Source of the DNA: Planctomycetota bacterium
GTDB lineage: Bacteria > Planctomycetota > UBA8742 > UBA2392
Assembly (NCBI GenBank): GCA_020638635.1
Contig: JACKIE010000011.1
Span: forward strand, 914 to 64,913
Direction: 5' to 3'
Length of the DNA: 64,000 bases
Under the pieces are notes generated by a model that ran no database searches, was not told where the DNA came from, and was given only the letters and a program-made list of their open reading frames with translations. Shown here one piece after another: positions 49,234 to 56,770 of this stretch; positions within the stretch are counted from its first letter, which is position 1; each line of letters begins with the position of its first letter. Both the position numbers and the translations under genes were made by a program.

Positions 49234-51177
49234 ATGGGCAAGACAGTCGGAATCGACCTCGGCACCACCAACTCGGTGGTCGCCGTCATGGAAGGCAAAG
49301 AACCCAAGGTGATCGCGAACCCCAGCGGCGCGCGCATCACTCCCTCGGTTGTCAGCTTCGCCGAAAACGGCGAGCGACACATCGGCCAGATGGCAAAGCG
49401 CCAGGCCGTCACCAACCCCACCAACACCATCTTCAGCATCAAGCGCTTCATGGGCCGCCGCCACAACGAGGTCGCCAGCGAAGAGAAGCTGGTGCCCTAC
49501 GAAGTCACCGGCGGTGCGGCCGACATGGTGAAGGTCAAGGCCCGCGGCAAGGAGTACACGCCGCAGGAAATCAGCGCCATGATCCTCAGCGATCTCAAGA
49601 AGACCGCCGAGGCCTACCTGGGCGAGCCCGTCACACAGGCCGTCATCACCGTGCCCGCCTACTTCAATGACGCCCAGCGCCAGGCCACCAAGGAGGCCGG
49701 CGAAATCGCGGGCCTGAAAGTCCTGCGCCTGCTGCCCGAGCCGACCGCCGCCTGCGTGGCTTTCGGCCTCGACAAGCGCAAGCAGGGCAAGTTCGCGGTG
49801 TTTGACCTGGGCGGCGGCACGTTCGACGTCAGCGTCCTGGAAGTCTCCAGCGAAGGCGGCGAAAGCGTGTTCCAGGTGCTCAGCATCACCGGCGACGGCC
49901 ACCTGGGCGGCGACGACTTTGACCAGGTGCTGATCGACCACATCGCCGACGAGTTCCAGAAGCAGCAGGGCATCGACCTGCGCAAGGACCAGATGGCCCT
50001 GCAGCGCCTGAAAGAAGCGGCCGAGAAGGCCAAGTGCGACCTCAGCACCACCGAGCAGACCGAGGTCAACCTGCCCTTCATCACCGCGGACGCCAGCGGC
50101 CCCAAGCACCTGCAGATGAGCATCAGCCGCGCCAAGTTCGAGAGCCTGGCCGCCAAGCTGTTCGACCGCCTGGTCGGTCCCACCAAGCAGGCCCTGACCG
50201 AGGCCGGTCTGAGCGCCAGCGAGGTTGACGAAATCCTGCTGGTCGGCGGCAGCACGCGCATCCCCAAGGTGCAGGCCATCTGCCGTGAAATCTTCGGCAA
50301 GGAACCCAACCGCGGCCTGAACCCCGACGAAGTGGTCGCGCTCGGCGCCGCGGTGCAGGGCGGCGTCGCCACCGGCGAGTTCAAGGACATCCTGGTGCTC
50401 GACGCCACGCCGCTCAGCCTGGGCGTGGAGGTGCTGCACGGCGAGATGAACGTGCTGATCCCCAAGAACACCACCATCCCCACCAGCAAGGAGCAGACCT
50501 ACAGCACCGCCGCAGACAACCAGACGGCCGTGACCATCAAGGTCTACCAGGGCGAGCGCAAGATCGCGTCCGCCAACCGCCTGCTGGGCAGCTTCGACCT
50601 GACCGGCATTCCGCCGGCCCCGCGTGGCATGCCGCAGATCGAGGTGAAGTTCGACATCGACGCCAACGGCATCCTGAAGGTCAGCGCCAAGGACAAGGGC
50701 ACCGGCAAGGAAGCCAGGATCGAGATCAAGTCCGACTCGGGCCTCAGCAAGGACGAAATCGAGCGCATGCGCCGCGAGGCCGAAACGCACGCGGCCGACG
50801 ACGAGAAGCGCGTCGAGCTGATTCACGCCAAGAACGAGGGCGACCGCATGGCCTTCAGCGTCGCCAAGATGCTGGAAGAGCACGGCAGCAAGCTGGATGA
50901 AGCCGGCAAGAAGGAAATCGAAGAGAAGAAGAAAGAGCTGGAAGAGGCCATGAAGGGCGAAGACGTGGGCAAGATCAAGGCCGCCACGGAAGCCCTGACC
51001 AAGGCCAGCCACAAGCTGGCGGAAAAGATCTACGCCAGCGCCAGCCCCAAAGAGCAAGAGGACATGCGCAAGGCCGCCGAGGAAGCCCAGGCCCGCGGAG
51101 GCGTAGGCACCGAAACGGCAGGCAGCAGCGACCGCGTAGTAGACGCCGACTACTCGGTGAAGGAAGAAGACAAGTAA
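49234..51177 (+). CDS. dnaK: Molecular chaperone DnaK (Hsp70)
   Basis: 647 aa starting [18 protein letters not shown], with [13 protein letters not shown], a full substrate-binding domain and lid, and an acidic C-terminus. Confidence 0.98.
50609..51176 (+). repeat. Direct repeat, left copy (dnaK 3' end), duplicated at 56202-56769
   Basis: By-eye comparison shows 568 bp collinear at an offset of 5593 bp. The only differences I found are two synonymous third-position changes (50619 C vs G; 50625 T vs C). The stop codons then differ (TAA vs TAG). Confidence 0.9.
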
Positions 51178-51191
51178 AATACGACATGCAT

Positions 51192-51227
51192 CTGCAATGG
51201 CGCCGGAACATCCCGGCGCCATTTGCA
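51192..51227. terminator. Hairpin terminator after full-length dnaK (also faces the convergent island operon)
   Basis: TGCAATGGCGCCGG-AACATC-CCGGCGCCATTTGCA: an 11-bp perfect core stem extendable with one bulge, followed by TTTGC. Confidence 0.6.
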
Positions 51228-51273
51228 TTTGCAGGCTCTTCCCGGACGTGTCAGGTGCAACCACGCCGATAGT

Positions 51274-51960
51274 TTAATCCATAAAACCAATGACGCGGGC
51301 CTTCGCTTCGGATTCGACGTCGGTGACCGCAATCAGAGTGTGTTCGTAGGTGTGTGCGTCGCCCTTCGTTCGCGCAAGCAACACCAGCACAAGCCAGGCT
51401 TTATGAGCCTCAGCGTGGTCGAACAATGCTCTGGCCCGATCGCCTGTCATCGTCGGTGCCAGCCACCGCTGCGCTTCCTCCCATGTGTTGCCGGCAGGAA
51501 GGAAGGTCATCTGCATCACGGTATTCGTTCGCCCCTCTCGCAATGACCCATCACGCGCCTTGTCAATAAACGCCTGAACTTCCGTGTCATCGCTCAACAC
51601 CTTGCGACCGTCGAGTTGGAAGGGAGTTGCCGTCACGTCCACTGCCTTCAAGTCTTTGTCCTGCAGGAGCCGGTAGAATCGGCTCACAGCCAGGCATGCG
51701 CCGGGATTGCTCATCACGGCACCCTGTGTCGCTCCGGGAAGTACTTTCGGCAGTTCAATCTTTGGTGAGCCGTCACCAACTGTGTGGCCGGACGCCGGAG
51801 AGCCCTTGCGCTTCTCGCCATCACCACCCGGAGTGTGAGCAGTGGGCTCCCCGCCTGAATTCTGAGCGTTGAGTTCTTGTGACGACTTGACGAAAAAGGC
51901 AGTTGCAACAACGGCCAGGCTTGCAACCACAATACCAAGTATAACCACGTTCAGTTTCAC
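51274..51960 (-). CDS. Membrane-anchored protein with a Gly/Pro-rich linker and an NTF2/SnoaL-like C-terminal domain (hypothetical)
   Basis: GTG at 51960 with GGGAGAA upstream. The N-terminal TM is MKLNVVILGIVVASLAVVATAFFV. The fold assignment is tentative. Confidence 0.55.
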   Translation of the reverse strand: MKLNVVILGIVVASLAVVATAFFVKSSQELNAQNSGGEPTAHTPGGDGEKRKGSPASGHTVGDGSPKIELPKVLPGATQGAVMSNPGACLAVSRFYRLLQDKDLKAVDVTATPFQLDGRKVLSDDTEVQAFIDKARDGSLREGRTNTVMQMTFLPAGNTWEEAQRWLAPTMTGDRARALFDHAEAHKAWLVLVLLARTKGDAHTYEHTLIAVTDVESEAKARVIGFMD

Positions 51961-51993
51961 GGCGATTCTCCCGCAGGGGAAGCTCTTTTACGC

Positions 51994-54971: not shown

Positions 54972-55478
54972 TCATTGATTGGGCTGCTCCAGCTGCCAAT
55001 CCGACGGATCTGTGTCCTCATCCAATCCGCATGTCGGCGAAGCCGAGTCATACCAATACTCCATTTCCCAATCACTACCAGTGCCACATGTGTCGTGCAT
55101 GTACGTCCCCTCCCACGACTGCGCCACTGAACGAAACTCGCTGAGTACGGTACACGAAGGATTGCGAAGTGATTCAATGGGGCCGATGAAATCGTCGGAA
55201 AACGTGTCATCTTCCCAACACTCGGTAGTATAAATCCACTTTTTAGTATATGGACAGCACTCCTCAGGTACCGCCATCGTGTATTCAAACGCAAATGGGT
55301 AATCATTGCCATCATTGTTCACGATCAGAGGCCCAGTGATCGTGCCATCGATGATCTCCACCAAACTGTTTGGTGCGACCGCATTTGCCGGGCTTAGAGC
55401 AGAAACTAAGTCGGCATAGATCAGCAACGTGATGGCGATAGCCATCACACCAGATGCAATTGCACAAATCGTTTTCAT
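54972..55478 (-). CDS. Secreted acidic Cys-rich protein (168 aa, hypothetical)
   Basis: ATG at 55478 with AAGGAG upstream. The signal peptide is MKTICAIASGVMAIAITLLIYA. The mature part contains 7 Cys (EECCPYT, TECWEDD, PSCTV, DTCGTG, PTCGLD). Confidence 0.6.
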   Translation of the reverse strand: MKTICAIASGVMAIAITLLIYADLVSALSPANAVAPNSLVEIIDGTITGPLIVNNDGNDYPFAFEYTMAVPEECCPYTKKWIYTTECWEDDTFSDDFIGPIESLRNPSCTVLSEFRSVAQSWEGTYMHDTCGTGSDWEMEYWYDSASPTCGLDEDTDPSDWQLEQPNQ

Positions 55479-55489
55479 GGTATCACTCC

Positions 55490-56101
55490 TTAAGGATGCT
55501 GGTGAATGTCCGAAACCGAAGTATCCCGGACACTTTGCACTGAAACATTCCACACTTGTGCGAGGATAAGGCATCCGACCATCAGCACCCCGTTTCGTAC
55601 TACGTTCGCCGAAAGCGTCGGGAATTCGAGAACACCTGCGCCAATGCATCCACAACCACGTCCTGCCAACTCGCTTCGGGAGAGCACGAGCGCCAGTGTG
55701 AACGCCGCGAACACAAGGGCTGCCAATGAAATCACAACAGACTTCCGTTTTCGCACCGTGATCAAAGACACTCCCAGGGCTAACTCAACAGCGGCTACGA
55801 CGCCGACAAATTCTGAATACCCCAGTGGAATGTATCGGTACAAGCGATAGTGGACGACAGCGATCGCAGTTTGCATCGAGTCGGCATGAACTGCAGGGCC
55901 CCATCCCCCTGCCAGTCCGATCAACTTTGATAGCGAGGCAGCGATGAGGATGCCGGCCAACAGGATTAGCAAAATCGCGGACGTGAAACCCGGCAGCGCA
56001 CACGAGCCACAGCGCGGCATCAGATACCCGGCCGAGGCCGATCGCCCGTCAAAAGCGCAACCCTTTTTTGTTGCCCTCTGTTGCAAAAACACCCCCCTCA
56101 T
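55490..56101 (-). CDS. MauE/DoxX-like membrane protein
   Basis: Four or five TM helices and the GRGCGCIGAG motif, which resembles the CGCFG motif of the MauE family. An alternative start exists at 56020 (MPRCGSC...). Confidence 0.55.
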   Translation of the reverse strand: MRGVFLQQRATKKGCAFDGRSASAGYLMPRCGSCALPGFTSAILLILLAGILIAASLSKLIGLAGGWGPAVHADSMQTAIAVVHYRLYRYIPLGYSEFVGVVAAVELALGVSLITVRKRKSVVISLAALVFAAFTLALVLSRSELAGRGCGCIGAGVLEFPTLSANVVRNGVLMVGCLILAQVWNVSVQSVRDTSVSDIHQHP

Positions 56102-56201
56102 GGATGCCAGCGACAGACCTCATGCAAAAAAGAGCGAGACAGAGAACGCTATCTATACATGCGCCAAATAAAAAAAAAGCGAAAAACGGTACAAATATGA
56201 G

Positions 56202-56770
56202 TTCCGCCGGCGCCGCGCGGCATGCCGCAGATCGAGGTGAAGTTCGACATCGACGCCAACGGCATCCTGAAGGTCAGCGCCAAGGACAAGGGCACCGGCA
56301 AGGAAGCCAGGATCGAGATCAAGTCCGACTCGGGCCTCAGCAAGGACGAAATCGAGCGCATGCGCCGCGAGGCCGAAACGCACGCGGCCGACGACGAGAA
56401 GCGCGTCGAGCTGATTCACGCCAAGAACGAGGGCGACCGCATGGCCTTCAGCGTCGCCAAGATGCTGGAAGAGCACGGCAGCAAGCTGGATGAAGCCGGC
56501 AAGAAGGAAATCGAAGAGAAGAAGAAAGAGCTGGAAGAGGCCATGAAGGGCGAAGACGTGGGCAAGATCAAGGCCGCCACGGAAGCCCTGACCAAGGCCA
56601 GCCACAAGCTGGCGGAAAAGATCTACGCCAGCGCCAGCCCCAAAGAGCAAGAGGACATGCGCAAGGCCGCCGAGGAAGCCCAGGCCCGCGGAGGCGTAGG
56701 CACCGAAACGGCAGGCAGCAGCGACCGCGTAGTAGACGCCGACTACTCGGTGAAGGAAGAAGACAAGTAG
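56202..56770 (+). pseudogene. dnaK: Displaced dnaK 3' fragment (equivalent to DnaK residues 466-647), right copy of the direct repeat
   Basis: The translation from ATG 56222 is identical to the last 182 aa of DnaK. An in-frame TGA lies immediately upstream of the homology (56198-56200). The fragment is followed by its own terminator. Confidence 0.85.

Follow-up and report, generated by a model that had tools for sequence, protein, structure and literature searches.

In a 64,000-nucleotide (nt) stretch of DNA from an uncultured Planctomycetota bacterium (assembly GCA_020638635.1, contig JACKIE010000011.1, positions 914-64,913, forward strand; referred to below as the window), the chaperone gene dnaK is followed by a low-G+C island of four genes, and the island in turn by a second copy of the 3' end of dnaK. 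The gene itself is intact, and its product is 96-99% identical to the DnaK proteins of planctomycete metagenome-assembled genomes (MAGs). One copy of the repeated segment forms the end of dnaK (R1), and the other, on the far side of the island, is a displaced fragment (R2). The features of the locus are collected in Table 1.

Table 1. The dnaK locus and its inserted island; positions are those of the window (aa, amino acids; E, expectation value; MFE, minimum free energy).
Feature	Position	Strand	Description
Intact dnaK	49234-51177	+	647 aa; Pfam HSP70, E 3e-245; standalone, without grpE or dnaJ alongside
Repeat copy R1	50609-51176	+	3'-terminal 568 nt of dnaK; begins in the GIPPAPRG motif and stops after two bases of the stop codon
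Unique low-G+C segment (island)	51177-56201	-	5,025 nt between the repeat copies
Hairpin 1	51192-51227	.	G+C-rich, between the convergent dnaK and 228-aa genes; MFE -32.6 kcal/mol, z -5.1
228-aa protein	51274-51960	-	N-terminal membrane anchor, disordered linker, NTF2-like C-terminal domain
961-aa membrane-anchored beta-sandwich protein	51994-54879	-	CarboxypepD_reg domain, Pfam PF13620, E 6e-13
Hypervariable patch in the 961-aa gene	54227-54781	-	64 of 65 differences from the second MAG
168-aa acidic protein, six cysteines, secreted or anchored	54972-55478	-	Open reading frame and signal-like N-terminus, from sequence
MauE/DoxX-like membrane protein	55490-56101	-	First gene of the operon; Pfam PF07291, E 6e-10; start codon uncertain
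AT-rich stretch	56102-56201	-	G+C 0.42; upstream of the operon, ends at the R2 junction
Repeat copy R2	56202-56769	+	Displaced dnaK 3' fragment
Hairpin 2	56792-56829	+	After R2; MFE -34.2 kcal/mol, z -3.6 against shuffled sequence
CitMHS/ArsB-family transporter	56967-58364	+	Right-hand host flank; Pfam PF03600, E 3e-70

Self-comparison aligns R1 and R2 at an offset of 5593 nt, with 566 of 568 nt identical, and this pair is by far the strongest self-match within the 64 kb. The original prediction on this DNA had described the repeat, and its exact coordinates and offset are reproduced computationally. The mismatches fall at 50619 (GCC/GCG, Ala) and 50625 (CGT/CGC, Arg); both are synonymous and affect third codon positions, and the 551 nt after the second mismatch are identical in both copies. 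At its left edge, the repeat begins with the second base of an Ile codon in the conserved GIPPAPRG motif, within one of the most conserved stretches of dnaK. At its right edge, it ends with the second base of the stop codon (TAA in R1, TAG in R2), and the flanks past this point are unrelated. Both the pair of synonymous differences within the first 17 nt and the difference between the stop codons had been noticed earlier, and both are seen. The two copies encode an identical DnaK C-terminus up to the stop codon. Directly upstream of R2 lies an in-frame TGA (56198-56200), so that the longest open reading frame (ORF) there comprises 182 aa, starting from an ATG at 56222 (56222-56770); this ORF is annotated as a protein in the public record (P0125).

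Each dnaK end is followed by a hairpin, as had been proposed, and both hairpins fold much better than shuffled sequence. Hairpin 1 also folds on the minus strand (z -3.9) and is likely a bidirectional terminator. The segment that contains it (51178-51273) is island-like in composition, with a G+C content of 0.573; the segment containing hairpin 2 (56771-56966) is host-like, at 0.653.

By composition, the DNA between the repeat copies is foreign and was laterally acquired. Its G+C content is 0.562; for all other 5,025-nt windows of the 64-kb stretch, the mean is 0.655, with a standard deviation of 0.016 and a minimum of 0.625. At third codon positions, the four island genes have a G+C content of 0.55-0.62, compared with 0.84-0.91 for dnaK, the CitMHS gene and their neighbours. 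The low-G+C DNA coincides exactly with the unique segment; R1, R2 and the flank to the right have a composition like that of the host. The compositional discontinuity claimed in the original prediction thus appears as a strong break on the computed profiles, and the four co-oriented minus-strand genes of lower G+C are present between the copies. They form a compact operon with intergenic gaps of at most 100 nt. The AT-rich stretch beside R2, which had also been pointed out, is presumed from its position to be the promoter or 5' region of this operon; 56102-56201 contains neither a match to the sigma-70 consensus nor a stable fold.

The island proteins were scanned against Pfam, NCBIfam, PHROGs and PADLOC, and none of the four genes matches a recombinase, transposase, phage or defence family; the absence of an integrase, recombinase or transposase noted at the outset is borne out for these genes. 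Given the short intergenic gaps, there is also no room for a decayed recombinase gene. No terminal inverted repeats are found at the island ends, and no Rfam RNA family or tRNA is found at the insertion site. Several conventional origins were considered and rejected. A phage or plasmid origin finds no DNA match in phage and plasmid collections. Insertion of a transposon or insertion sequence (IS) is rejected because there is no transposase, there are no terminal inverted repeats, and the duplication measures 568 nt rather than being short. A tandem segmental duplication of the A-B-A-B type is rejected since only the 568-nt segment is repeated, with no second island copy in the window. The use of dnaK as an attachment site by phages was likewise examined in IMG/VR: all 32 of 32 Hsp70 matches include the N-terminal part, most being essentially full length, and none is an isolated 3' fragment.

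The same arrangement occurs in a second MAG (contig L085; GCA_020638605.1, JACKIF010000019.1), where the gene order, the repeat and both mismatches are as in the window. In an alignment of 22,007 nt, this contig and the window differ at 65 positions; the contig is thus a separately made assembly of what is in essence one strain, and it argues against a random chimera. One of the 65 differences lies at 56789, and all others fall into a single patch of 555 nt within the 961-aa gene, which is about 11.5% divergent and covers residues of about 52-236 of a 980-aa ORF, in its N-terminal part. The codon differences in the patch comprise 24 synonymous and 31 non-synonymous ones; there are no indels and there is no adenine bias. 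The patch looks like either the import of a diverged allele or micro-diversity between strains. Its presence in an otherwise identical 22 kb points to homologous exchange with diverged island alleles in this population. A diversity-generating retroelement was rejected as its cause, as all substitution types are present and the window holds no template copy. The literature search found no paper that names the second MAG and none on integration at dnaK.

The neighbourhood of dnaK was compared with that in five close relatives (L081, L086 on a 1.14-Mb contig, L087, L088 and L089) and, more widely, with 80 diverse and more distant dnaK loci with 10-kb flanks; for the occupancy of the dnaK site in other genomes, this is a limited sample. 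The dnaK genes of the five relatives are 92-93% identical to that of the window at the nucleotide level overall (94.5-96.6% for the 5' part of the gene and 91.7-93.5% for the region of the repeat), and in four of the five the upstream synteny with the window is kept. Neither the island nor a second dnaK fragment is present at dnaK in any of the five, and none of the 80 diverse loci has a second dnaK fragment within 10 kb. Directly after the dnaK stop codon, the five relatives diverge from the window and from each other. The empty site that had been predicted, with dnaK leading directly to the 56792 hairpin and CitMHS, was not found: genes for DnaKs of 88-98% identity all have other downstream flanks, and every relative has a different one. 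A degenerate DNA pattern for the DnaK C-terminus gave no match in metagenome contigs of the Joint Genome Institute (JGI). In GCA_013328875.1, the nearest species with data, the CitMHS orthologue is 93% identical and is not beside dnaK; the CitMHS-Usp pair is found on a different contig, preceded by 9.7 kb of unrelated DNA. The order of the genes near dnaK varies readily in this clade.

Other differences at these loci were seen as well. The window is without a segment of about 2.1 kb, encoding a hemerythrin-domain protein and a LysR regulator, that relatives carry upstream of dnaK, between a 55-aa ORF and dnaK itself (window 48999-49033; L081 7760-9892; L086 7707-9799); in this clade, the DNA on either side of dnaK is prone to indels. 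In L089, the region upstream of dnaK is entirely different and contains a type VI sheath gene with VipA/VipB domains. The last 1.3 kb of dnaK are identical in L086, L087 and L088, and the first 667 nt differ by 1.6% between L088 and L086, a pattern that hints at recombination within dnaK among strains.

At the two sites at which the repeat copies differ, the bases are C and C in the five close relatives, C and T in R1, and G and C in R2. One change is thus private to each copy, and the two copies share all other lineage-specific bases. Both sites also vary among more distant relatives. The chance that both mismatches fall within 17 nt of one edge is about 9e-4. Gene conversion between once-diverged alleles, as put forward in the original prediction, would keep the interior identical and let the edge escape, and is a possible cause; error-prone synthesis at an illegitimate joint fits this clustering too, as does the collapse of the repeat interior during assembly or polishing, with only flank-phased differences surviving. 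The presence of a foreign dnaK 3' allele in the window was considered separately. The segment-wise divergence ratio of the DnaK protein for the repeat region is up to 7.9 for P0126, compared with about 2 for most, and the window has 17 nucleotide singletons in this region. This apparent excess is matched by L089, with 15 singletons, and the foreign allele was rejected; since L089 shows the same excess, the 3' tail of dnaK is simply fast-evolving, and there is no mosaic signal.

A homologous module exists at a different locus. In the related species GCA_013328875.1 (L123; JAANMY010007950.1, 1-6314), a 6.3-kb contig carries a MauE remnant, comprising the last 50 residues only, together with 194-aa, 946-aa and 228-aa proteins that are 58%, 33% and 60% identical, respectively, to their island counterparts. 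The 961-aa gene is, as judged from these sequences, the fastest-evolving of the module. As in the window, the module has a low G+C content (0.55-0.59) beside host-like DNA of 0.66. Its neighbour is a rhomboid gene, and at the end of the contig lies part of a DDE (IS4/IS5-like) transposase, matched with a Pfam E of 1e-3, below the cut-off. No dnaK fragment is found on the 6.3-kb contig. The occurrence of the module at a different locus in a related species means that it relocates. The original prediction had raised the case of relatives that carry the genes without a dnaK repeat; such a relative exists for three of the genes and a MauE remnant, from which it follows that the module is not tied to dnaK, and the insertion in the window is not undone by it. 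Among JGI sequences, P0005 (a DnaK, 88% identical) and P0144 (a homologue of the 228-aa protein, 75% identical) each come from a single contig whose recorded length is exactly 5,286 bp. The two may lie on one contig, in which case dnaK and the island would be linked in a second lineage.

The cargo is rare. The 168-aa protein matches no Pfam or NCBIfam family, and the same holds for the 228-aa protein. At E<=1e-3, the 961-aa protein has only 16 representatives among 1.84 billion proteins; the family of the 228-aa protein comprises nine clusters among 5.8 billion proteins, and its gene has no relative in IMG/VR. A structural model of the 228-aa protein by AlphaFold2 (AF2) has predicted local distance difference test (pLDDT) scores of mostly 75-96 over residues 81-228. 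In Foldseek, the model retrieves NTF2-like folds (best E 3e-3, with a target TM-score, TMt, of about 0.6). At most, these features suggest a cell-envelope module with a possible disulfide-handling partner. In a Logan contig (L124, 1227-4805; SRR13378645), a 1,192-aa homologue, 37% identical to the 961-aa protein, has a sigma-70 region-4 domain at its N-terminus, which is not a usual fusion partner for a beta-sandwich protein of the cell surface.

As to how the island came to lie between an intact dnaK and a displaced piece of the same gene, we favour, with a probability of about one half, a Campbell-type insertion by the RecA of the host of a circle that held a 3' piece of dnaK and the operon. 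The dnaK segment on this circle would have run from the GIPPAPRG-coding stretch to the stop codon. A single homologous crossover, mediated by RecA, between this segment and the 3' part of the chromosomal dnaK would then leave dnaK intact, place the cargo behind it and shift the old 3' fragment of dnaK, now without a promoter, to the far side of the cargo; the shared segment would remain as a long direct repeat. A recombinase encoded by the element would not be required. Subsequent recombination between the 568-nt repeats could loop the island out as a circle with one dnaK segment, or delete it scarlessly. We infer the circular intermediate, the dependence on RecA and the direction of transfer from the arrangement; the near-identity of the copies would reflect either a recent origin from a donor of the same species or later gene conversion.

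Three features favour this homology-based route over a site-specific element, namely the length of the repeat, the position of its right edge at the stop codon, and the lack of both a recombinase and room for one. At 568 nt, the repeat is within the range of lengths usable by homologous recombination. A right edge at the dnaK stop is accounted for because the homology between two dnaK-bearing molecules ends where their downstream DNA differs.

A number of points weigh against the insertion of such a circle. Neither the circle, nor the donor arrangement, nor an empty site has been seen, and, for the immediate ancestor, the relatives neither confirm an empty site nor speak against one. The first formation of the circle needs an illegitimate join at 56201/56202, which the model leaves unexplained. 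A simple recent crossover between near-identical alleles does not predict that the mismatches cluster at one edge, so conversion, mutagenesis at the junction or an assembly effect must be added. In the dnaK 3' region of the window, there is no more mosaic signal of a foreign allele than in L089. Finally, both assemblies represent practically the same strain, and they are therefore not two independent evolutionary observations.

A more far-reaching version of the same idea, which we regard as doubtful, is that the island is a mobile unit without a recombinase, whose sole mobility determinant is a 568-nt slice of a near-universally conserved essential gene. Such a unit would loop out through RecA acting on the dnaK repeats, be transferred, re-insert into any similar dnaK without harming it, and be lost without a scar. 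If true, this would account for the scattered occurrence of the module in related planctomycetes and for the possible second dnaK-linked copy, and it would extend the displacement proposed for rhs loci (discussed below) to housekeeping genes as general landing pads.

The original prediction had read the locus as the footprint of an element that integrates into the 3' end of an essential gene. What stands of this is the foreign DNA between an intact dnaK and a displaced 3' fragment; the site-specific integrating element does not, as no integrase and no reuse of the site are seen. In its strongest form, this reading posits an element of the type of e14 or phage 21 at icd, with its core in the GIPPAPRG-coding stretch and an integrase that was lost or acts in trans, as in cis-mobilisable elements (CIMEs) or integrative mobilisable elements (IMEs). 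The footprint would be the same, since an intact gene with a displaced 3' fragment at the far end is documented for icd and icdC around e14 (PMC13626634). The left edge, too, lies in a highly conserved stretch of dnaK, a type of target that such elements favour. Nevertheless, the explanation is improbable: there is neither a recombinase gene nor space for a remnant of one, and the site is unoccupied elsewhere in 80 dnaK loci, eight close relatives and IMG/VR. The repeat is more than three times the length of the icd segment duplicated by e14, which measures 165 nt, and a replaced 3' end would be expected to differ along its whole length, not only at the edge on the side of the core.

The distribution of the mismatches fits an origin of both copies from the recipient's own 568 nt, duplicated by illegitimate or replication-based joining (one-sided homology-facilitated joining, template switching or repair of staggered breaks). 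Copies identical at birth, combined with error-prone synthesis at the joint, would share their lineage-specific bases and differ only beside one junction, with one private change each, as is observed, and no recombinase would be needed. Such joining leaves unexplained, however, why the other edge falls exactly at the stop codon; moreover, both differences are synonymous third-position changes (chance about 1 in 9) at sites that vary in distant relatives. Target duplications of about 568 nt are not known as a regular outcome in bacteria, and we consider this origin unlikely. An artefact of assembly, in which a 5.6-kb circle, or else a second haplotype with the same dnaK 3' end, was built into the path of the chromosome and the two repeat interiors were merged into one consensus, would also confine the differences to within 17 nt of the unique flank, which is what phasing by k-mers preserves. 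An exact repeat of 551 nt is hard for short reads, and a loop in the graph, arising from a free circle plus an empty site, gives the same path. On the other hand, this path recurs in the second MAG, which was deposited separately, and two contigs encode exactly the same products of 647 aa and 182 aa. A 5.6-kb circle without a replication gene could not persist alone, and the 56201/56202 junction between AT-rich DNA and the dnaK fragment must physically exist regardless. An artefact is, in consequence, very unlikely.

Further from the island, the window contains a single tRNA, tRNA-Arg(ACG), at 41707-41782, 7.5 kb upstream of dnaK. The genes that follow it are syntenic in relatives, and the tRNA is hence not an island border here. 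At 45479-46853, a gene encoding a SARP-like N-terminal domain fused to an alpha/beta-hydrolase is inserted relative to L081 and L086. The insertion separates the start codon of a large AAA_16 regulator gene from the promoter/start region, exactly at the boundary between the two. The similar segments 45251-45473 and 46838-47060 (223 nt, 78%) were considered as a second target duplication and rejected, as they are paralogous N-terminal domains of two tandem regulator genes.

Bacterial gene gain is usually credited either to elements that bear a recombinase or to double-crossover replacement between conserved flanks. Read as the insertion of a circle by homologous recombination, the dnaK locus would be a natural case of a third route, in which an operon is added by one crossover within part of an essential gene, that gene stays undisrupted, and the gain is reversible through the long repeat. 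If this route is common, the resulting islands would escape detectors that seek integrases and short attachment (att) sites, and conserved housekeeping genes would act as landing pads and as breakpoints of synteny. The flanks of dnaK in this planctomycete clade fit the look of a landing pad, in that the 3' side differs in every relative examined. The cargo is of secondary interest, as a rare envelope module with a large surface protein that evolves much faster than its neighbours.

Among known systems, the 'C-terminal displacement' at rhs loci has the same components: an intact gene, DNA of foreign composition, and a dissociated 3' fragment with an identical conserved piece. In the model put forward for rhs loci, recombination between core repeats excises a circle, which inserts in a new host by a second homologous crossover and so moves the old 3' end downstream; the core copies that are attached and those that are dissociated are identical (PMC2935791). 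A dedicated recombinase is absent from this proposed two-step route, as it is from that favoured for dnaK. Unlike at dnaK, the incoming tip at rhs differs from the resident one and alters the protein, supplying a toxin tip with its immunity gene. At dnaK, the homology extends as far as the stop codon; the DnaK protein stays the same, and the gene contributes nothing but homology. The cargo there is a separate operon in the opposite orientation, the target encodes a housekeeping chaperone instead of a polymorphic toxin, and there is one displaced fragment rather than an array.

The insertion of e14 or phage 21 at icd of Escherichia coli resembles the dnaK locus in that it affects the 3' part of a housekeeping gene and results in an intact gene plus a displaced 3' fragment. 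There, the element supplies a replacement 3' end, the original fragment is kept as the icdC pseudogene, and excision recombines the two (PMC13626634). The difference is that e14 encodes a site-specific recombinase and excises on SOS induction, and the dnaK island encodes none. Furthermore, the differences between the icd copies are scattered, whereas those in the 568-nt dnaK repeat lie at one edge only.

In a Campbell-type insertion, one crossover within shared homology produces a direct repeat around the insert, and the target gene is left intact where the shared homology is its 3'-terminal fragment. The topology at dnaK is identical to that obtained in the integration of suicide plasmids and in the formation of Hfr (high-frequency recombination) strains through shared IS copies. 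These precedents are engineered or depend on IS homology on a replicating plasmid; at dnaK, the molecule would be a natural one, free of vector, replication and IS sequences, and would use a slice of an essential gene. CIMEs and islands mobilised in trans at the 3' ends of genes (trmE, for example) are similarly small, without a recombinase and flanked by direct repeats. Unlike the dnaK repeat, however, those of CIMEs are short att sites of tens of nucleotides that are used by a helper integrase, and neither a helper, nor an att core, nor recurrent use was found here. The best explanation for the locus is a homology-driven insertion without a recombinase that displaced the 3' end of dnaK, akin to rhs-type displacement and to Campbell-type insertion but at a housekeeping gene.

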